DNA of 64,000 nt from NCBI GenBank assembly GCA_003599755.1, contig QZJO01000009.1, positions 150,362 to 214,361 on the forward strand. The letters are read 5' to 3'. Each line of letters starts with the position of its first letter. Positions within the stretch are counted from its first letter, which is position 1. Shown here one piece after another: positions 24,782-63,952 of this stretch. The notes beneath the pieces are model-generated. The model was not told the DNA's origin. It did not search any database and saw only the letters and a program-made list of their open reading frames with translations. The position numbers and the translations under genes were made by a program. Source of the stretch: Candidatus Parcubacteria bacterium (GTDB lineage: Bacteria; Patescibacteriota; Minisyncoccia; Sungbacterales; SURF-37).

Positions 24782-26053
24782 TTACTCTCGCCGTTCCGGG
24801 TCCGCAGTGAGCGGCGCTCCCTTGAGCACATGCTCAAAGATCGCAAGCTCGCGATCAGCATATTTTTCCCAGGTAAACGTCCGGCGCACGAATTCGGCCG
24901 CATATGCGCTGATGCGCTCGTAGCGCGCCGGGTCATCCACGAGCGCGCGCACTGAGCGCGCGATATCGGCCGGATCCATGGCATTGGCCAATAGGCCGTT
25001 TTTTTCTTCGTCAATAATTTCGTGGATGCCGGCACCTCGCGAAACGACCGGCACGAGGCCGCAGGCCATGGCTTCGGTCGGCGCGAGGCCGTCGGATTGC
25101 ATGGTATGCGGATAGAGAAAAATATCTGCCTCGTGGTACCGCTCGATCAATTCTTTTTCGGAAATGCGCTTGAGAAAAATCACGCGCTCGGCCAGCTTGA
25201 GCTCGTCCACGAGCTTGAATAGGCGCGCCGCATACTCGGGATCCCCTGCCGGATCGCCGATGATGCGCAGGATCGCATCATAGCCCTGATCGGCGAGAAT
25301 CCTGGTCGCGCGAATTGCGTCCTCGAACCGGCGGTGCGGAAAAAATATGCCGCTAGTCAGCAAGTTTACTTTTTTATCCTTGGGCGCGGTGCGCGGCTTG
25401 TACGTGAACTGCGCGAGATTCGGGCCGTTGCGGGCCACGAACGCTTCACGGCCAAAGTAATCGCGCACCGCTTTCTGGTTGAATTTATCCACGACCACGA
25501 TTGCATCAAGCGGCCGGATGAACCGCCAATTCTCGTACGCGTCACGCATGCGATAGATCCATTGTTTCAAGAGCGGCTGGACATAGCGGTCCGGATCCAC
25601 GGCCGCAAGTTTGTCGACCAGATGCCGCATAGAATGTGTGTCGTTCGTATTCCAGACCGCGGGCACGCGCCGGGTGACCCGCGCGCGGAAAAACTTCACT
25701 GCGCGATGCGCGACGCGGTCATGCACGTTCAAGAGATCAACGTCGGGCTTAATAAGCTTTGCCATCGCTCTGGCCGAGCGTGTTTCGTGGCCCATGGTGA
25801 GCAATGTCGCGGCATAGCGGCCGAGCGGAATTGAGCGCAGCGTTTTATATTCCGGATCACGCGCCTGTTGAGGATCGAGCGCGATCACGTCGAATCCTTC
25901 CAGTAAGTCCGGGTAACACGCTTCTTTGGAATAAAAAAACGGATAGATGGTCACCTCGTGTCCCCGCGCGCGAAATTGATTCGCGAGATACAAAAACAGC
26001 CGCTGCGTGCCGCCTTTCACGTCCAGGCGGCGGATGACCATGGCGATCTTCAT
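24782..26053 (-). CDS. Glycosyltransferase family 4 (GT-B, Glycos_transf_1)
   Basis: N-terminal glycine-rich RRLDVKGGTQR, C-terminal E-x7-E-like PTEAMACGLVPV. Confidence 0.8.
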   Translation of the reverse strand: MKIAMVIRRLDVKGGTQRLFLYLANQFRARGHEVTIYPFFYSKEACYPDLLEGFDVIALDPQQARDPEYKTLRSIPLGRYAATLLTMGHETRSARAMAKLIKPDVDLLNVHDRVAHRAVKFFRARVTRRVPAVWNTNDTHSMRHLVDKLAAVDPDRYVQPLLKQWIYRMRDAYENWRFIRPLDAIVVVDKFNQKAVRDYFGREAFVARNGPNLAQFTYKPRTAPKDKKVNLLTSGIFFPHRRFEDAIRATRILADQGYDAILRIIGDPAGDPEYAARLFKLVDELKLAERVIFLKRISEKELIERYHEADIFLYPHTMQSDGLAPTEAMACGLVPVVSRGAGIHEIIDEEKNGLLANAMDPADIARSVRALVDDPARYERISAYAAEFVRRTFTWEKYADRELAIFEHVLKGAPLTADPERRE

Positions 26054-53587: not shown

Positions 53588-56500
53588 TTAGAGCGTGAAG
53601 GTCTTCGGCTCGGCACCGTCAGACGGCAAGCCAGGGATCTGGAAGCCGTTGTACCAGTCCGGACCCATGATGCCGCCGCCAGAACCACTGTGCGTGGTCG
53701 TGGAGTTGCCGGACCAGATGAAGTCATCACCCGATCCTATGGCATCGTTGTTCGAACCGGTAGTCAGTGCAGTGCCGCCGGAGGTACCAGCCTGCGCGGC
53801 ATCAACATACGGCGCCGTTGTGGCGAACCCGTAGTTGATCGCGCCTGCGAGGAAGCCGGCGTCATCGTACGCCGTGGTGCCGCCACTGGTATTGGCGATT
53901 GCCGGATACCATGTGCCGTCGCCCATGAGGCGAACCGTTGCGGAGTCGCCGGTATCGGCGCCGCTCACGTCACCGCGAAGCTCGAAGTAGTACGTCGCGC
54001 CTGCGGGAATGTGGAGCGATTCTGCCGATGTGACCGCGGAAGCCGAGGTATTCGACGGGTTGAAGTAGATCGCGAAGTCCGTTGTGGTCGCGCGATCACT
54101 TTCCATGCCGTCTACCACGCTGTCGGACGAACCGAACAGCGAGCCCTGGTTCACCGGATTTGCGGCGAATGCGTCGCCCGAAAGCGTAGTACCGACTTTC
54201 GAGGTATACGCGTAGAGCTTCAGGTTGGTAACCGAGAAGTCCGTCGTGAAGACGCCACCAGATACGCCCGTAGTCTCGTCAGAAGTCGTGGAGACCTGGA
54301 AGGTCACCTTGTAGAGCGAGACGCCGTTCGTGCCCGACGGGGCAGAGACGGAGAAGCGATACAGCGGCTTGCCGCTCTGATCGGCGAAGCTCGACGAGAT
54401 ATCCCCGAGCAGCGGCGTGATCGTCGGGTATGCCCGTACGACGCGGACACCATTCGAAGCGGTATCAGCGCTCGAGGAGCGTACGGTGTCCGATGATTGC
54501 GTGCCGATGCCGTAGGTCGTCGAGAGGCCGTTTTGGTTCACCTGGTCGAAGTCGACCGCAACGAGGTGGCCTGGCCGGCCGGACTCGTTGTTGCCGATGG
54601 GTGCGAGCTGCGCTTTGACCGTGACGATCTTGTCAGTGTCTTTCGCAACCGTGAGGCCCGTGGTGGTGACGATGATGCCCGAATCCGAAGAGGATGCGGA
54701 GACCTCGCCTACCTTGGTCGAGCCGTCCCAGACCGAAAGCTTGATCAGGTCAGCCGGCGTGTTCGAGGCGGTGTTCGAGAGCTGCAGCGTAAGCTGCTTC
54801 ACGTCCATGCCTTCATTGGTCGCCGTCAGGCGGAGCTTCAGCATTTCGATTTCCTGACCCGCGAGCGCGAGGCGCGTTCCCGCTGGCGCTTCTTGCGCGA
54901 TCGTGAAGGTGCCGCCGGCCGAGAAGGTCATGAGGTTCGATACCGAGGACGAGGCCACCGCCGGGTTGATGGTGTTACCGGAGGTAAGACCGGTTCCCTG
55001 GATGGCGCTCGAGCCGTATTCGTCACCCGCGAGCGAGAACTGCGCCGATGCGCCCGTGCCGCTCTTGGAGATGTCGCACTTCACGGCAACCGTCTTCGAA
55101 GTTCCTTTCGGAACGACCAAGGCGTTGTCGAGCGTGAAGGTCAACTCGTGAATGCCTGCCGTGGACGGATTCTGAATGTTCGAACCGGTGTTGAGGGCAG
55201 TAGTGCCGTCGAACATCTGGCAGTTCGATACATCGGATGTCACGGAAGCGTGGAGCTGGACGCGCGCCTGGTTGAAGCGAACGTCTTCACCCGAGTTGGA
55301 TGCGTCGAAGATGAGGTTGGCGAAGGTGAAGGCCTGAGCGCCGCGGATCACGCTTTGCGCGGTCGGCGAGTTGCCAACCGATACGTTCACCGCGCCGGTC
55401 TTCACGGTCATCGAGACGCCCGATACGGTGCCGGTGTTGGCAGTCGTAATGGAAGCGCCCGAGGTTTCGCCGCGAACCGAGGTCCAGTCGGAGTTCGGCG
55501 TAGTCGAAGCGGACACCAAGGTGTCGGCATCGAAGTCCGTCGAGAGCTTGCCCTTCAGGACGTAGACATTCTTCCCGACCGGGAAGGTGACCGCATCCGT
55601 GTAGGTGAAGACCATCTGGCCGTCGGCCGTGCCGGAGCCGTCCTTCGGACCCGCAACGACCGCGCCCGTCGCGTTGTTGACGAGTTTGACGTCGGTGTAA
55701 TCGGCTTCGGTAACGTTGGAGTCGTTCTTATTGGTCGAGACGCGCACGACGATAGAGGAAACCGTAATCGGTTCACCCTTCACGTCGACGTCGAAGGCGC
55801 CGAGCACCTGGTCGTTCAGGTTAACCGCAATGTTCTGCGCCTGAACGGCGTTCGATGCGGTAACCGTGAGCGTACCGTTGCCGACGGTCGCTTCGTATGC
55901 GTCCCATACCGGGTTCACGTCGTCGTCGAGCGTGCCGTCGTCGTCGGTCTGCGAATCATTCTGGTCGGAAGATACCGCCGGCGTAAGGCCGAACCCGAAC
56001 TGCTTGCCGACAACATAGATGTCGGTCAGGCGGTAGAGGTCAAAGTCCACACCGCGGTTTGATCCGCCTTCGATATCGCCTTTGACGTACACCTCAACGC
56101 TGTTGCCTTTCTTGATGTCCACGCCGCTGCCGAAGGAAGCCGAGTAGTACTTGCCGTCGGAGGAAATGACTGCGGCGTGATCCGTGCCGCCCACGTTGAT
56201 GACCACGTTCTTCAGGTCAGACGCTGCAGCCGAACCGGACTGGTTGAAGGTGATCGACTTCAAGCTTACGTCCTCGTCCGAACCCGCGGTCAGGCGGAGG
56301 CCGGTGAAGATGTAGCCCTTGGTGCCGATTTCCTTGGTCTGGCCGGATCCCGGATCGTTCACGCCCTTTTGGAAGGTGAGCGAGCCGATGGTCAGGGTCG
56401 CGTTCATGGTGATGGAGCTGCCGACGATCGGAAGCGAACCGCTCACCGAGGACGAACCCGCATCAACCGCGACAACCGCAAACCGCGCGATGGAACCGCC

Positions 56501-57297
56501 GTCAGTTCCTGACGCGGGGCGGTTAAAGGCAATCGTCAGCGTGCGGGATGTTCCGCGCGCAACCGTGAACTTTTCGTTCAAGATCGCCTGGTGGTTCGAG
56601 TTGAGGGTCTTGGAGATGCCGATCTGGAGGCCGTTCTCATCGAGGAGTACGACGCCCGAAACCGACGAATCGTTTGCCGGGCCCTGGCGCTCCACCGTGA
56701 TGGAGTTGACCGTCACGTCACCGTCAGCAGAGGCGGTAAGCGTGATCTTGGTTGCCGGGACGCGCGCGGCGTTCAACGGAGCGAGCGAGTCGCCCGGTTG
56801 GGACGCCGTGGATACCGAGAGGCCGGAGCCAACCGGTCCCGGAGGCGTCGGCGTACCCGGAGGCGTCGGGGTTGGCGTCGGCGTCGCAGCCATGAGCGCG
56901 TTGTACTTCGCGCGCGAGATGGAGCCGAAGTAACCGGCCGTCGGGCTTACGCCGTTTGCTGCCTGCCATTTCGATACGGCTTGCTGGGTGCGAGCACCGA
57001 AGTAGGTGGTCTCGTTCCCGGGCGAGCCGGCACCGCTGGCCGCAACTTGGTGGCCCGCGGCGTTGAGATATTTCTGCAGGCACATGACATCGTCACCCGT
57101 GACCCCGATGGTGAGGTCGCGCGTGAAGGTGCACTTGGCCGCAGTACCGCCGCCGCCTTGCTGACCAAGGAGCGCGTTCAGTTGCGCTTGCAGTTGCGCG
57201 ATCTGAGCGAGCAGCTCTTCGATCGTTACCGCGGAAGCCGTTGAGGCGCTCGCGAGCAACGCGACAGTCGAGAGAGCAACGATGACTTTCGCCATCG
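53588..57297 (-). CDS. Giant secreted cell-surface protein (1236 aa): signal peptide, coiled coil, PG_binding_1 domain, then ~1000-aa Ser/Thr/Gly-rich beta-rich region (S-layer/adhesin candidate)
   Basis: Start MAKVIVALSTVALLASASTASA preceded by SD AGGGAGG; IEELLAQIAQLQAQLNALL; PG-binding CLQKYLNAAGH...TYFGARTQQAVSKWQ; Pro/Thr linker PTPTPTPPGTPTPPGP. Confidence 0.75.
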
Positions 57298-57348
57298 TTC
57301 CTCCCTTAGGAAGAAATCTATTCATAGCGACTGATTCACTGATTAGCG

Positions 57349-57370
57349 ATTCCGCCGGATGGCGGAATCA
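57349..57370. repeat. Perfect 9-bp-arm palindrome GATTCCGCC-ggat-GGCGGAATC in leader region
   Basis: Read directly. Confidence 0.6.
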
Positions 57371-57684
57371 ATCTTCGAGGCCGGCCGCTTCGACGCGTTA
57401 GTGCGGCGCATGCCTGAAGAGTTACGGAATAATTAATGCGGATAGCGAATGGAGGTTTGTGGTGAGGATTCGCGAGGGGCTTTTTTGTGCCCGCTGCGGC
57501 CGGAACGGGAATCGAGCGGCGGATGCTACCGCCGTCCTGCAATCCCCCATCCGGACGCAGAGGGAGATCGACCGGGCCTGAAACGCGAACCCCGGGAATT
57601 GGGTAACTAAGATAGGATTCGAGAAACGTAACCTTGTTCGCTCAGTTGTCAACGTTCTGTCCGACCTGGCACATGCGTTCCAGC

Positions 57685-57733
57685 CAGGATCTCAAGCGGG
57701 TTTCCGCGGAAAAGAAACGTTCTTGAGATCCTG
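57685..57733. repeat. 12-bp-arm inverted repeat CAGGATCTCAAG ... CTTGAGATCCTG with 25-nt loop
   Basis: Read directly; potential RNA structure or protein-binding site upstream of the giant gene. Confidence 0.6.
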
Positions 57734-57876
57734 CCTGCAACTTTAGAATCACGAATAGAACTGGCTGCCAATAAATGAGGACGTGCTAAAAACGGCTCGG
57801 TAAGCCCTCACCTCATTGGCGACTGGGGTATCACTTGCCCCATTATATAGCGGCCTTTTTCCTCGGCAACCATTTA

Positions 57877-57885
57877 TGTGGATAA
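57877..57885. promoter_or_regulatory. Perfect DnaA box TGTGGATAA (reverse complement TTATCCACA)
   Basis: Exact 9-mer consensus. Confidence 0.5.
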
Positions 57886-57992
57886 GTTCTCCTGAGGAAA
57901 ACGCTGATGAGCACTATATTTCCGCACACTTTTCGCAAGAGAGCAAATCCGGTCAAAAAAGAACGAGGATGCCCTCATGCCTACGATTCGCG

Positions 57993-58001
57993 TGTGGATA
58001 A
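57993..58001. promoter_or_regulatory. Perfect DnaA box TGTGGATAA, same orientation, 116 bp from the first
   Basis: Exact 9-mer consensus. Confidence 0.5.
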
Positions 58002-58099
58002 GTAACGCCCTGCGCCGCTCACCAGCGCAATAGGCGAGGATCTGACGCTGGGACTATCCGTAGCATTCAAGAGCTATTCGAAGCTATTGCAAAAACAAA

Positions 58100-58275
58100 A
58101 TTTTATTGGATAATTTTTATCTGATCTCTATCGGACATGCCTCGAGGTATATTGACCATATAAAATGAACATTTTCCTATCAGACATCTATCGGACATAA
58201 ATATTCACGCATATCGGACATTGGTTAAAAACGCCTCAGGAATCCATAAATCCTGAGGCATTTCTATGTCCGACA
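58100..58275. repeat. AT-rich island (~30% G+C by count) with five copies of a TATCGGACAT-like 10-mer (58129, 58178 variant, 58189, 58212; inverted near-copy at 58266) and hairpin GCCTCAGG...CCTGAGGC
   Basis: Direct counting: 58081-58200 contains 37 G+C in 120 nt; repeats read directly; degenerate DnaA-like TGGATAA at 58107-58113. Confidence 0.6.
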
Positions 58276-58340
58276 AGTTTCGTTTCCGATATGGCGTCCC
58301 CTAGATCCGTTGATAGCCAAACGAAACGAATCGGATGAGC

Positions 58341-59048
58341 TCACAGAGCTTTAGCCGTTCCCCGGTTGTACGAATAGGTCGTCCAACGATTGTCCCCGTG
58401 GCGGGATATGATGCCTGCGGTAACGAGCTGAAGAAGATCGCGCTGGATGGTCTTCTCGCTGACTATTGCGTCAAACAGTTTGACGATGTCGCTGATCTGC
58501 GCGTGCTCGACGGTTTGGAGATGTTCGATGATCTTTTTCTGTCGGGCGTTGAAGAGAAGCGCGGCTGGCGCCTGTTGCTCATTCACGGCTACGGGGATGG
58601 ATGCGGCCGTTGCCTCCTCTAAACGTACGGATTCTGCCGTAGAATTGGCCGGCGCAAGCGAAGACAATGGTTTAAGCGTTACGGGCTCGGCTGGAATGGA
58701 TGCCATGACCGGCGGCTCAAACACGGCCACTGCATCGGCAAGATCCTGATAGGCCTGACACAGACGGTCTTTGTTTTCGGCGCTGACTAACCCGAGGTCG
58801 GCCGCGAGCCGAATGAGCTCTTGCGCGCCGGCCGAGGCCGCGCGCACCATGTCGCTGCCCGCCTCCGATCCGCCGAGAATCGTGACCGCTGCCACGGCCG
58901 AAATCACCTCGGCCGCTTTTTGCCGAAGCGTGGTGCGCAACGCCGGATCGAACCATTCCGGATTGCTGACGCGCCAGACCGCTTGCGCGGCCGCGAGCGC
59001 CCGCGAGCGCAATTGAGCCGCTTGTTCTTGAAATTCACTACTGGGCAT
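58341..59048 (-). CDS. Putative regulator: N-terminal four-helix-bundle-like domain fused to C-terminal DeoR-type winged HTH
   Basis: C-term KKIIEHLQTVEHAQISDIVKLFDAIVSEKTIQRDLLQLVTAGII; N-term LRQKAAEVIS...RAASAGAQELIRLAADLGLV loosely matches the four-helix-bundle family; start at MPSSEF (the ORF extends to 59195). Confidence 0.4.
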   Translation of the reverse strand: MPSSEFQEQAAQLRSRALAAAQAVWRVSNPEWFDPALRTTLRQKAAEVISAVAAVTILGGSEAGSDMVRAASAGAQELIRLAADLGLVSAENKDRLCQAYQDLADAVAVFEPPVMASIPAEPVTLKPLSSLAPANSTAESVRLEEATAASIPVAVNEQQAPAALLFNARQKKIIEHLQTVEHAQISDIVKLFDAIVSEKTIQRDLLQLVTAGIISRHGDNRWTTYSYNRGTAKAL

Positions 59049-59957: not shown

Positions 59958-62624
59958 CTACACCGATGCGCCGACCGGCTCCTTGGTCGGCTGCGGCTGG
60001 GCTTTGCCGAAGACCACCGTGCCGTCTTTGACACTGACAAGCACCCGATCCCCCGCCTGAATCCGGCCGCTGATGATTTCTTGCGCGAGCGGGTTCAGAA
60101 CATAGGTCTGGATCGCCCGCTTGAGCGGCCGCGCGCCGTAATGCGGGTCGAATCCCTTGTTTACGATGAACGTCTTCAGTTCCGGCGTGAACGCAAGCTC
60201 CACGCCCTTGCGCGTCGTGCGCTCTTTCATGCGGCCAAGCTGGATATCCACGATCGCTTCGAGAATCGGCCTGGTCAGCGAGCTAAAGATGATGATTTCG
60301 TCCACGCGGTTCAAGAATTCGGGCCGGAAATTGCGTTCCAAGGACTTGCGGATCTTGTCTTTGAGATCCGTCTCCTCGCGCTCGCGGCTCATCTCGGCCT
60401 CCATCGCAAAGCCGATCTTCGCCAAGTCGGACATAAATTCCGAACCGATGTTCGAGGTCATGATGATGATCGCATTTTTGAAGTTGACCACGCGGCCCTT
60501 GGCATCGGTCAGCCGGCCGTTGTCGAGGATCTGCAACAGCACGTTGAACACCTCCGGGTGCGCCTTTTCGATCTCATCGAAGAGAATCACCGAGTACGGC
60601 CGGTGTTTGATCTTCTCGGTCAACTGCCCGCCTTCCTCATAGCCGACATAGCCGGGCGGCGAACCGATGAACTTGGCCACCGTGTGGCGCTCCATGTATT
60701 CGGACATGTCCACGCGGATGAGCGCCTTTTCATCGTTGAACAAAAATTCGGCAAGGGTCTTGGCCAATTCGGTCTTGCCCACGCCCGTGGGCCCGAGGAA
60801 CATGAATGACGCGATCGGCCGGTCCTCATCCTGAATACCGGCGCGCGATCTGCGCACCGCATGAGATACCTTTTCGATGGCCTCGTCCTGGCCGATAACG
60901 CGCTGTTTCAACACGTCTTCGAGGCGCAACAGCTTGTCGGTCTCGGATTCGAGCATGCGCATCACCGGGATGCCGGTCCAGCGGGCGACCACGGTCGCGA
61001 TATCCTCCTCAGTCACCTCTTCTTTCATCATCTTGCGCTCGTGCTGCACCTTCTGGAGCTTTTCTTCCGAGCCGACGAGCTCCTGCTCGGCGTTCGGAAT
61101 CAAGCCGTAGCGCAGTTCCGCGACGCGCTCAAAGTTGCCTTCGCGTTCGCGAATGTCGGACTCCTGGCGCAATTCGTCGAGTTTCTTTTTCTGGGTGCGA
61201 ATCGAAGCGATGAGATCCTTTTCCGATTGCCAGCGGCCTTCCAATTTCTTGGCTTTGGCTTTGAGCGTTTCGATTTGCTTGGCAAGCGTCGCGGTGCGCT
61301 TCTTGGCCGCGGGCTTGGTCTCCTGCTTCAAGGATTGGCGTTCGATCTCGAACTCCGCCAATTCCCGGCGAATTTCTTCCAACTCCTTGGGCATGGAATC
61401 GATTTCCAAGCGCAGGGATGAAGCCGCTTCGTCCATGAGATCCACGGCCTTGTCAGGCAAGAAGCGGTCGGTAATGTAACGCGAGGAAAGGTCCACGGCC
61501 GACGTGATCGCGCTGTCGGCGATGCGCACGCCATGATGCACCTCGTAGCGCTGCTTCAAGCCGCGCAAAATCGTGACTGCCTCTTCGAGCGACGGCTCTT
61601 CGACGTACACCGGCTGGAACCGCCGCGCGAGCGCGGGGTCTTTTTCAATATGCTTATGATATTCCTTGAGGGTCGTGGCGCCGATGGCCCGAAGTTCGCC
61701 GCGCGCCAAGGCGGGCTTCAGCATGTTCGAAGCATCAATCGCGCCTTCGGCCGCGCCCGCACCCACGATGGTATGCAACTCGTCGATGAAAATGATGTAT
61801 TTGCCCTGCTGGCGCTCCAACTCGCGCAGGATCGCCTTCAAGCGGTCCTCAAACTCGCCGCGGTACTTCGTTCCGGCCACCAATGAGCCCAAATCCAAAC
61901 TAATCAGCTCTTTTTCCTTGAGCGACTCGGGCACCTCGCCCGAGACGATACGCTCGGCCAAGCCCTCGACGATCGCGGTCTTGCCCACGCCCGCCTCGCC
62001 GATGAGCACGGGATTGTTTTTCGTCCGACGGCTCAATACCTGCATCACGCGGCGGATTTCCTCGTCGCGGCCGATAACCGGATCGAGTTTTTCCTCGCGC
62101 GCGAGCTTCGTGAGGTTGCGCGCGTATTTCTCAAGCACGTTGAATTTCGCTTCGGGCTCGGGGTCGGTAATGCGCTGTGCGCCGCGCAGTTCCCCGAGCG
62201 CCTTCATAACGGTCTCGTGATTCACGCCATGCTCGGCCAACAGATCCTTGGCCAAGGACGGCACCATGGTCAGCGCGAGGAACAAATGCTCCACCGAGAT
62301 GAATTCGTCCTTCATCTGGCCGGCTTCGCGATGCGCTTGCTCCATGACGCGGCCCAAATCCTGGGATAAATACAAGGACGCGATGCCGCCGCCCCCGCTC
62401 ACGCGCGGCTGGCGGTCCAGAGTATCCAAAAGTTTTTCCGAAAACTGCGCAACGTCCTGCCCGATGCGGTCTAATACCTCGTCGATCGTGCCTTCTTCCT
62501 GCAGCACGAGCGCGGCGAGGATGTGCAACGGAGTAATTTGCTGGTGCGAGCGCTCGACGGCCAAATCGTGCGCGCGTTTAAGGGCTTCTTGGGCTTTGAT
62601 GGTGAAATTGTTGAACGGAGTCAT
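59958..62624 (-). CDS. clpB: ATP-dependent chaperone ClpB (Hsp100, two AAA+ modules with middle coiled-coil domain)
   Basis: Clp N-domain repeats, Walker [16 protein letters not shown] and [15 protein letters not shown], long coiled-coil M-domain, 888 aa. Confidence 0.95.
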
Positions 62625-62737: not shown

Positions 62738-63952
62738 CTAGGGTGTCGGCCGCTCGGCAAGCTCTACGGTAACCGTAAACGTGTCGTTTCCCCGCCGCAC
62801 CGCGAGGCGCACGGAGTCGCCGGCCTTGCGTTCGCGGATCAAGCTGGCGAGCGGGCGGTCCAGATTCACGGCCGTACCGTCGAACTCCACGATAATATCG
62901 CCCTCGACGAGACCCGCCGCGGCTGCGGGACTGCCTTGAATCACCGCGCTCGAGCCTTCGCCGCCGACCAAGAGCGCGCCCTGATCCACGGGGAGATTCC
63001 GCTCCTCGGCCAGTTCTTTGGTGATCAGCTGGTAGCGGATACCCAAGTACGGATACACGATGCGGCCCCGTTCGCGCACGCTCTCGACATCGCGCCGCGC
63101 ATAGTTCGACGGTATGGCAAAGCCGATGTTTTCGGCGCCGCTGGCCATTGCCACGTTGACGCCGATAACCTCGCCGCGCAGGTTCAAAAGCGGCCCGCCC
63201 GAATTGCCGGGATTGATGGCCGCATCGGTCTGGATCAGTTCCTGCAATTCCTCTACTTCGCCGCGGCCGCCGCTGGCGAATACGCTCCGGTGCAGGCCGG
63301 AAACCACGCCGACGCTCACCGTGTTCGAGAACTCGCCGAGCGCGTTGCCGATGGCGATCGCGGTCTGGCCCGGCTTGATAGCGTTGGCATCGCCAAACGC
63401 GAGTATGGGCAGATTCTCGCGATCCACGCGCAGCACCGCCAAATCCTGGAATTCATCACGCGCAAGCACGCGGGCCGGCGCGCTCGAGCCGTCGTTGAAA
63501 AACACCGTATAATCCGCGGTCGTGTCGGCCACAACGTGGCGATTCGTGATGATCAATCCGTCGGCCGAGACGATGAATCCCGATCCGGCCGAAATCTCTT
63601 GGCGTTCGGTCTGGCCGGGATCTTCGGGCGTGATGCCGAAAAATTGCTGAAAGAACGGATCCTCGGCAAACGGTGAAAACCGGTCCACGACCGGCACGTC
63701 CTTGGCCGCGACAATGCTGACGACCGCCGGCGACGCGCGCGCCACGACCGCAACCACGGCCTCCTCATGCGCCTGCGCTTGCTCTTGGTCTTGGGCAAGA
63801 ACGTTTTGCGCCGTGTCGGCAAGTCGCGCCACGATGTCGGCCGGCCGCTCGCCGGTTACCAGGCCGTAGGTCGCCGCTGCCGTCAATGCCGAACTGCCGA
63901 TCGCGACCGCGACCACCAACGCCAAAAATTGTTTTCTAGTCCACGCTTCCAT
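62738..63952 (-). CDS. htrA: HtrA/DegP-family periplasmic serine protease (trypsin-like domain + PDZ)
   Basis: N-terminal TM/signal; catalytic-triad context IITNRHVV (His), GNSGGPL (Ser); C-terminal PDZ-like GDIIVEFDG. Confidence 0.9.
   Translation of the reverse strand: MEAWTRKQFLALVVAVAIGSSALTAAATYGLVTGERPADIVARLADTAQNVLAQDQEQAQAHEEAVVAVVARASPAVVSIVAAKDVPVVDRFSPFAEDPFFQQFFGITPEDPGQTERQEISAGSGFIVSADGLIITNRHVVADTTADYTVFFNDGSSAPARVLARDEFQDLAVLRVDRENLPILAFGDANAIKPGQTAIAIGNALGEFSNTVSVGVVSGLHRSVFASGGRGEVEELQELIQTDAAINPGNSGGPLLNLRGEVIGVNVAMASGAENIGFAIPSNYARRDVESVRERGRIVYPYLGIRYQLITKELAEERNLPVDQGALLVGGEGSSAVIQGSPAAAAGLVEGDIIVEFDGTAVNLDRPLASLIRERKAGDSVRLAVRRGNDTFTVTVELAERPTP

Follow-up and report, generated by a model that had tools for sequence, protein, structure and literature searches.

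The non-coding stretch between positions 57296 and 58340 of a 64-kb segment of contig QZJO01000009.1 from a Candidatus Parcubacteria bacterium (the window, meaning the whole 64,000 nucleotides analyzed) is probably a sigma-70-type promoter region that depends on DnaA boxes and drives a giant gene for a peptidoglycan-binding envelope protein, with an operator array lying next to it. The stretch separates two minus-strand genes, one encoding a helix-turn-helix (HTH) regulator and the other the giant protein; it spans 57326-58340 by the mechanical gene call, and its left edge moves to 57296 if the giant gene begins at 57295. Read along the minus strand, it runs from a terminator through an AT-rich array of 10-mers and a pair of DnaA boxes into the giant-gene leader. 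The principal elements are the following:

58341-59048, minus strand, HTH regulator gene (235 residues)
57993-58001, minus strand, DnaA box 1, TTATCCACA on the minus strand (TGTGGATAA on the plus strand)
57877-57885, minus strand, DnaA box 2, same 9-mer on each strand as box 1, 7 nt upstream of the P2 -35 element
57842-57869, minus strand, predicted promoter P2, with -35 TTGCCG (57869-57864), a 16-nt spacer, and -10 TATAAT (57847-57842)
57296-57835, minus strand, 5' leader of the giant gene (~540 nt)
53588-57295, minus strand, giant peptidoglycan-binding protein gene (~1235 residues)

An earlier, sequence-only reading of the window had pointed to the two copies of TGTGGATAA (at 57877 and 57993), 116 bp apart and in the same orientation, as unlikely to arise by chance, and both statements hold: these are the sole copies in the window, 0.19 would be expected, and only 1 of 100 shuffled sequences reached two. 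Both copies extend to the 11-mer TGTGGATAAGT, and their orientation on the minus strand is that of both flanking genes. The intergenic region contains no additional box with up to one mismatch (the only other such site in the window is at 25485), and the relaxed pattern TTWTNCACA adds none there; a TGGATAA 7-mer listed in the same reading is present at 58107-58113. Promoter P2, whose activity is predicted, matches the consensus at 10 of 12 positions in a promoter scan, and its -10 element lies 29 nt from box 2. The window thus has a consensus DnaA box and has it next to the predicted promoter of the gene presumed to be regulated.

The same arrangement was found in related genomes. A genome scan with the single HTH protein gave no match, whereas one with an alignment of its distant relatives returned 468 matches in GTDB genomes, of which the best 80, every one from Patescibacteria, were retained. 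In 68 of these 80 loci, the HTH gene is followed, 25 to 1150 bp past its stop codon, by a same-strand copy of GTTATCCACA. On the gene strand, TTATCCACA occurs 72 times in the 97.9 kb downstream of the HTH stop codons (0.74 per kb, compared to 0.023 per kb per strand elsewhere), and it is also the top 9-mer recovered de novo from that zone (68 of 79 loci). The motif gains a single base, a G at position -1 (61 of 68), which turns it into GTTATCCACA; the flanks of this 10-mer carry no information. A TAYAMT-type -10 element (TATAAT or TATACT) follows 29 to 34 nt past 65 of the 74 boxes, with the -35 element being only weakly conserved. The variants TTTTCCACA and TTATCCCCA, seen in loci that lack a perfect box, keep this spacing. 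The box promoter is followed by a leader of 250 to 660 nt and then by an orthologue of the giant peptidoglycan-binding protein, as in L016 and L004. In most relatives, the homologous intergenic region is just 25 to 330 bp long and consists of a terminator, one box, and a promoter, with no AT-rich island. In some genomes, an inserted galU-like gene follows the HTH gene (positions 8261-9142 in L082, and in the L004 group); in these, the box remains at the giant-gene promoter and the GGACAT motif of the array, described below, remains beside the HTH gene. The window and four relatives (L001, L002, L003, and L084) have two boxes 115 to 125 bp apart, and box 2 with its promoter is conserved in all five. 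Downstream of box 1, these four relatives have TATAAT at a gap of 29 to 30 nt; the aligned hexamer in the window is TTCTTT, so that a former promoter P1 appears to have decayed in this genome with its box left intact.

The box-promoter combination is not confined to the giant gene. Five distinct mraZ loci from Patescibacteria, also known as the candidate phyla radiation (CPR), each contain one perfect GTTATCCACA (position 2153 in L206, 1896 in L208 and L209, 1890 in L210, 1888 in L212 and L213, and 1899 in L214), and MraZ GTGGGA operators follow in all five. Four of the five have TATAAT as the mraZ -10 element, with the box 31 nt upstream; in L206, the -10 element is TACAAT. Since a perfect box was found at every CPR mraZ locus examined, the division and cell-wall cluster appears to share the module. 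An unbiased metagenome scan with the pattern GTTATCCACA-N29-34-TATAMT returned, among the matches listed, mostly loci without an HTH or giant gene. In many of these listed matches, the box lies 6 to 10 nt upstream of a canonical TTGACA -35 element and precedes mraZ (L089, L103, L121, and L155), rsmH, lexA, greA, or type IV pilin genes; those on low-G+C contigs include lexA (L093, L135, and L148), greA (L126), pilins (L102, L108, and L129), and transposase-like genes of the IS200/RAYT type (L091 and L146). Exact protein look-ups confirmed three of these contigs, L089, L091, and L126, as members of the CPR, with Nomurabacteria, Yanofskybacteria, and Parcubacteria as the groups identified. In sequence other than the giant-gene zone, the 9-mer exceeds 9-mers of the same composition 7.6-fold and is mostly intergenic, with 29% of its copies falling in long open frames, compared with 89% of random positions. 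A literature search for this box in CPR promoters, or for this regulator together with the envelope module, returned nothing relevant.

The most economical candidate for the reader of the box is DnaA acting as a transcription factor, because the sequence equals the consensus DnaA box, lacks symmetry, keeps one orientation, and is met repeatedly across the genome. Such a role of DnaA is established in other bacteria (PMC3193534, PMC13438810, and 10.1101/2024.06.08.598065). Known DnaA-box promoters have, as in the window, a consensus 9-mer beside a sigma-70-type promoter outside oriC, and a link between gene expression and initiator status is the plausible logic in both (PMC3193534, PMC13438810, 10.1101/2024.06.08.598065). 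Compared with these systems, which include the E. coli dnaA, nrdAB, and mioC promoters, the B. subtilis DnaA regulon, the Caulobacter DnaA targets, P. aeruginosa gidAB-parAB, and Borrelia, the module described here has a single perfect box whose position (3' end 29 to 34 nt from the -10 element) and orientation are strictly conserved across the phylum; the genes behind it are those for a giant envelope protein and also mraZ, and the module is known from sequence alone.

The following course of events can be envisaged. RNA polymerase would start near 57835 from P2, and DnaA would bind the 9-mer as a monomeric, oriented site centered near -46 to -51 (for the box at 57877-57885, about -46). Bound in this way, DnaA could contact the polymerase and modulate, probably activate, a promoter whose -35 element is weak in many relatives. 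The frequent pairing of the box with a weak -35 element suggests activation; the best-known DnaA-regulated promoters are cases of repression. Expression of the envelope protein would thereby be coupled to the state of the replication initiator. Each of the two boxes in the window would originally have stood just upstream of the -35 element of its own sigma-70-type promoter, and box 1 may now add cooperative or reservoir binding. The HTH protein, acting on the array in the AT-rich island, would add local control, and the long leader, which has a hairpin and the boxA-like sequence CGTTGACAACTGAGCG, may help the polymerase to transcribe the 3.7-kb gene processively.

Several points weigh against this interpretation. 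Binding by DnaA at the boxes and by the HTH protein at the array is predicted from the sequence, and the likely transcription start near 57835 derives from a consensus scan alone. The sign of the regulation and the identity of the binding protein are likewise deduced. Box 1 has no recognizable -10 element at the expected spacing, and its retention falls outside a simple model of one box for one promoter. Between the array and the boxes downstream of it are 110 to 340 bp, a long distance for direct occlusion of the promoter. The 80 syntenic loci were retrieved with a pattern that fixed the HTH recognition helix. The mraZ loci were picked by MraZ homology alone and are fairly close relatives (MraZ at least 80% identical), and the listed matches of the metagenome scan give no estimate of frequency.

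Among the other explanations, the one that fares best is that the 9-mer is read by a different factor, such as the HTH regulator encoded next to it, some other global factor of the CPR, or the RNA polymerase itself through a UP-like contact of its alpha C-terminal domain or sigma, and that its likeness to a DnaA box is coincidental. We regard this as unlikely. The HTH gene and the box are neighbors in at least 68 of the 80 loci, and the box sits where UP elements and class I activators do, both of which such a reader would account for. The conserved block is nevertheless exactly the consensus DnaA box plus a flanking G, with no information beyond it and none of the dyad symmetry expected of a site for a dimeric winged-HTH protein. 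A flanking G is also present in the E. coli R1 and R4 boxes. The box is further found at promoters, that of mraZ among them, that have no HTH gene in their vicinity, and the two motifs follow different partners, the box going with the giant-gene promoter and GGACAT with the HTH gene. A general UP element is disfavored because the box is too rare: the window has two perfect copies in 64 kb, and the related loci have 34 in 745 kb, or ~46 per Mb.

Far less probable is the notion that the boxes are titration sites, a datA-like reservoir that takes no direct part in transcription. DnaA can be titrated by high-affinity consensus boxes that lie outside oriC (PMC12371093). In several relatives, extra perfect boxes lie just past the terminator of the giant gene, 3.9 to 5.6 kb downstream (L006 at 12330, L008 at 12686, L012 at 6995, L013 at 8520, L014 at 10398, L029 at 10397 on the minus strand, L038 at 10585 on the minus strand, and L051 at 10494), some of them with a plausible -10 element for the next gene, so that boxes bracket the giant gene in several lineages. 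These extra copies, and box 1 of the window with no intact promoter behind it, would suit a reservoir. Titration requires neither a fixed gap of 29 to 34 nt to the -10 element nor a constant orientation toward the gene, and one or two boxes per locus offer little capacity; the titration and promoter roles are compatible.

The second component of the proposed promoter region, the operator array, lies between the HTH gene and the boxes:

58227-58259, minus strand, intrinsic terminator of the HTH gene, with the stem GCCTCAGGA/TCCTGAGGC at 58233-58259 and a U-tract (UUUUU) at 58227-58231
58118-58275, no strand, operator-like array, TATCGGACAT in three copies (58129, 58189, and 58212) and three variant copies
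58178, variant copy TATCAGACAT of the array
58118-58127, degenerate variant copy of the array
58266-58275, inverted variant copy ATGTCCGACA of the array
58081-58232, no strand, AT-rich island, 31-32% G+C

The five 10-mers that the sequence-only reading had listed (58129, a variant at 58178, 58189, 58212, and an inverted copy at 58266) are all there, together with the sixth, degenerate one; counted from 58129, the start-to-start spacings are 49, 11, and 23 bp. The family motif is TA[TA]N-GGACA, with TATCGGACAT, TAAAGGACAT, and TATAGGACAT as members. That the 10-mer might be a dispersed repeat was not borne out, as the motif has just three sites in the window, all inside the island. Across the related loci, it concentrates at the two ends of the HTH gene, where it is enriched 47- to 130-fold: the zone from -200 to +60 around the HTH start has 4.20 sites per kb (48 loci), the zone from -45 to +350 around the HTH stop has 1.49 sites per kb (21 loci), and the rest of the loci has 0.032 sites per kb. 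As the motif is present in one or the other zone in 66 of the 80 loci, the array is probably the HTH regulator's own operator. Copies near the HTH start often coincide in part with the -10 element of that gene, as in TATACTGTCCGATA. Tandem copies 11 bp apart are also found in L001, L002, and L003, and L084 has four copies; in L001, a palindrome, TATCGGACAT-AAA-ATGTCCGATA, sits within the last codons of the HTH gene. Copies of TATCGGACAT inside HTH coding regions, ~200 nt before the stop codon (L045, L071, L074, L076, and others), were considered as sites and set aside as a probable coding coincidence because they encode the conserved I-S-D-I of the HTH.

Taken most simply, the HTH protein would be of the repressor type and control its own gene. 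The Sungbacteria-like lineage has the array placed between the HTH gene and the giant-gene promoters, i.e., 3' of the HTH gene. Candidate ways in which it could act on P2 include roadblocking of read-through transcription, looping, and control of a lost or unrecognized transcript. Position, conservation, spacing, and orientation of these elements, and the separate tracking of the two motifs, are direct observations.

The HTH regulator itself matches the Pfam domain HTH_DeoR at residues 169-217 (E = 1e-7). DeoR-family regulators have the DeoR HTH at the N terminus and a sugar-phosphate-binding (DeoRC) domain at the C terminus. Membership in that family was considered and rejected: the HTH is at the C terminus, a four-helix bundle takes up the first 110 residues, and no DeoRC domain was matched, so that the protein shares the HTH type with DeoR but does not belong to the family. 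Searches of the curated families in Pfam and NCBIfam yielded nothing beyond the DeoR-like HTH, and the protein is rare at high identity. Its AlphaFold model (predicted local distance difference test score of 82.8) has helices at 4-108, then a disordered linker, and finally, at 168-232, a winged HTH. The nearest folds are the four-helix bundles 2gsc and 2rld and the winged HTHs of MecI/BlaI, AspA, and MarR, all at weak E-values (~3e-3 or worse).

Similarly to the autoregulated winged-HTH repressors MecI/BlaI and MarR and the centromere binder AspA, on which its C-terminal domain superimposes at such weak E-values, the regulator is associated with a motif in direct and inverted repeats that in many relatives overlaps its -10 element. 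It differs from them in its unusual domain order, a 2gsc/2rld-type four-helix bundle at the N terminus and a DeoR-like HTH at the C terminus, and, in the window lineage, in having the array at the 3' side of the regulator gene rather than at its promoter. The -10 element of the HTH gene (TATACT) lies ~12 to 16 nt before the ATG in many relatives (L014, L016, L034, L038, L045, and others); at this distance, the mRNAs would be leaderless or nearly so, and the operator motif would extend over the start-site region. The ATGTCCGATA motif of L004 (at 4493 and 4515) overlaps the start codon (MSD...) of the galU-like NTP_transferase gene, from which it follows that the HTH regulator may also govern the supply of UDP-sugars. 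The window lineage has no galU-like gene between the HTH gene and the box.

The hairpin GCCTCAGGA/TCCTGAGGC proved to be a real and stable fold. The terminator RNA has a folding free energy of -25.5 kcal/mol (z = -6.7, with none of 200 shuffled sequences as stable); its stem is a 9-bp GC-rich helix lengthened by A-U pairs, ~80 nt past the HTH stop codon at 58341. Given the A-tract on its opposite side, it is potentially bidirectional.

The AT-rich island next to the DnaA boxes had led the sequence-only reading to propose an origin, in the form either of a chromosomal oriC or of an iteron origin of a plasmid or phage. The low G+C content is genuine: 58081-58200 measures 30.8% and is the lowest 120-nt stretch of the window, although the background is 60% and not the ~65% then assumed. 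The island lies 80 bp from box 1, is filled with the regulator-associated repeat, and is absent in most orthologous regions; in L001, L002, and L003, the homologous intergenic stretch is 5 to 13 points under the local G+C content.

For the region to be a chromosomal oriC, the two boxes would nucleate DnaA and the 30% G+C island would serve as the DNA-unwinding element. Like bacterial origins, the window pairs perfect boxes, 116 bp apart, with its most AT-rich 120 nt and with phased short repeats, the 11- and 23-bp phasing of which resembles origin architecture. A typical oriC holds at least three to five DnaA boxes within a few hundred base pairs, counting those with one mismatch; here there are two, with no near-consensus box beside them. 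The origin tests, which cover the 64 kb of this genome, revealed no skew inversion: GC skew has negative values up to 52 kb and again beyond 58 kb, and the positive stretch at 53-58 kb coincides with the giant gene and its own composition. The flanking genes are co-oriented, and nearly all other genes in the window are also on the minus strand, which leaves no switch in gene orientation. A DnaA signature (of the RDHTTV type) is absent from the window and from all 81 loci L001-L081, no Bac_DnaA, DnaN, or Rep family was detected in the 30 window open reading frames scanned, which encode envelope, glycosylation, or chaperone proteins or had no match, and no DnaA, DnaN, or Rep Pfam match lies within 10 kb of the locus in L082-L085. 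Finally, most relatives have the homologous region without the AT island, the gap from box to -10 element and the box orientation are fixed, and the same module precedes mraZ at unrelated loci. A chromosomal origin is therefore very improbable.

More improbable still is an iteron-type origin of an integrated plasmid or phage, with the HTH protein as the Rep initiator, TATCGGACAT as the iterons, and the copies at the HTH promoter in relatives as an autoregulatory operator. The layout does resemble that of pPS10, F, P1, and RK2, with direct repeats near DnaA boxes, an AT-rich tract, the gene for a DNA-binding protein in the place of rep, and, in relatives, a motif that overlaps the regulator's promoter; yet the locus is chromosomal and syntenic (HtrA-ClpB-HTH-giant gene) across the phylum, resembles none of 72,556 plasmids and 50,697 phages in sequence, and encodes a four-helix bundle with one winged HTH instead of a Rep_3 or WH1-WH2 fold or Pfam match, with no Rep structure among the fold matches, its repeat unit is 10 bp and not 17 to 22 bp, the direct-repeat array next to the box is absent in most relatives, and the flanking open reading frames scanned include no integrase or mobile-element genes, nor is there a tRNA. 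With both kinds of origin rejected, the other option raised in that reading, a giant-gene promoter under the control of DnaA or a repressor, stands and has gained in detail: the spacing of box and -10 element is fixed and the 10-mer tracks the HTH gene, with DnaA as the predicted occupant of the box.

The giant gene that the DnaA-box promoter would serve encodes a protein with a single Pfam domain, PG_binding_1 (E = 9e-9), and a hydrophobic N terminus resembling a signal peptide. The protein is conserved across Patescibacteria, with more than 1487 homologs; the best 120 are 40 to 70% identical, most of them over the full length, and the closest named relative among these is from Candidatus Sungbacteria. 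The open reading frame has 1245 codons, with a mechanical start at ATG 57325 that is probably wrong. The gene likely starts at ATG 57295 (MAKVIVALST...), since a ribosome-binding site, AAGGGAGG (57307-57300), precedes this codon and the resulting N terminus matches those of orthologues, including L001. Its leader contains three recognizable elements:

57806-57787, minus strand, terminator-like hairpin with a T-run
57677-57741, hairpin with 28-nt arms
57654-57639, minus strand, boxA-like sequence CGTTGACAACTGAGCG

A boxA-like (A)CTTTGAYAAYTGAATAG, usually after a hairpin, is present in at least 33 of 69 orthologous leaders (e.g., L016, 6725-6750) and may serve processive transcription of the 3.7-kb gene. 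The motif resembles the boxA found in Gram-positive ribosomal RNA (rRNA) leaders. As in the rrn-type, Nus factor-dependent antitermination leaders, the (A)CTTTGAYAAYTGAATAG follows a hairpin; unlike in those, the leader precedes a protein-coding gene, and no Rfam family was matched. An rRNA operon behind the box promoter, suspected from the leader motif, was rejected: there is no 16S motif and no Rfam match in 135 kb, there are no masked stretches, and the downstream gene is that of the giant protein. The hairpin with the T-run lies 40 to 60 nt downstream of the P2 -10 element in the window, and T-runs are similarly placed in L001, L002, L003, and L084; it could be a leader attenuator or mark a short transcript. 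The minimum-free-energy folds of the first 95 nt after P2 differ among five relatives, with no common fold.

Upstream of the HTH gene in the sense of transcription are two further genes, in an order (HtrA-ClpB-HTH-long intergenic region-giant gene) that is conserved among the relatives:

62738-63952, HtrA-type protease gene
59958-62624, ClpB gene

At the other side of the locus, the 20 open reading frames sampled from positions 1-48700 encode mostly glycosyltransferases, two NeuB homologues, DegT, epimerases, a Polysacc_synt flippase, and a methyltransferase, so that this part of the window, as sampled, is an envelope glycosylation island devoid of replication genes. Because glycosylation genes fill the neighboring part of the window, the giant protein is suggested to be a glycosylated surface protein. 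A PMT_2 protein and a second PG_binding_1 protein are encoded at 48.9-51.9 kb. The window contains no tRNA genes, an Rfam search of 56.5-60.5 kb at permissive E-values gave no match, and exact-protein look-ups for the window HTH, ClpB, and giant proteins matched no record.

Patescibacteria account for a large share of bacterial diversity, and gene regulation in them is scarcely understood. At the locus analyzed here, a false origin call has been removed, and what takes its place is an ordinary type of element with an unexpectedly sharp conservation pattern. The promoter architecture (GTTATCCACA, 29-34 nt, TATAAT/TATACT) is sharply defined and precedes both a universal uncharacterized envelope protein of 1200 residues and mraZ, and a probable operator motif, TA[TA]N-GGACA, can be assigned to a widespread uncharacterized regulator family.

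The recurrence of the box-plus-promoter module across the phylum suggests that DnaA may double as a transcription factor in Patescibacteria, which have very few regulators. A broader and more tentative proposal, held here with somewhat less than even confidence, is that DnaA would be a global transcription factor in these organisms and the oriented box upstream of the -35 element a phylum-wide module, driving the giant envelope gene, the mraZ/dcw cluster, lexA, greA, and pilins. If so, the state of the replication initiator would act directly on envelope growth and on division, and a regulator combining a four-helix bundle with a winged HTH, acting through a GGACAT operator, would form a second layer of control at the envelope locus. 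Coupling of replication initiation to envelope and division genes by DnaA in these minimal, epibiotic bacteria is thus a testable hypothesis.

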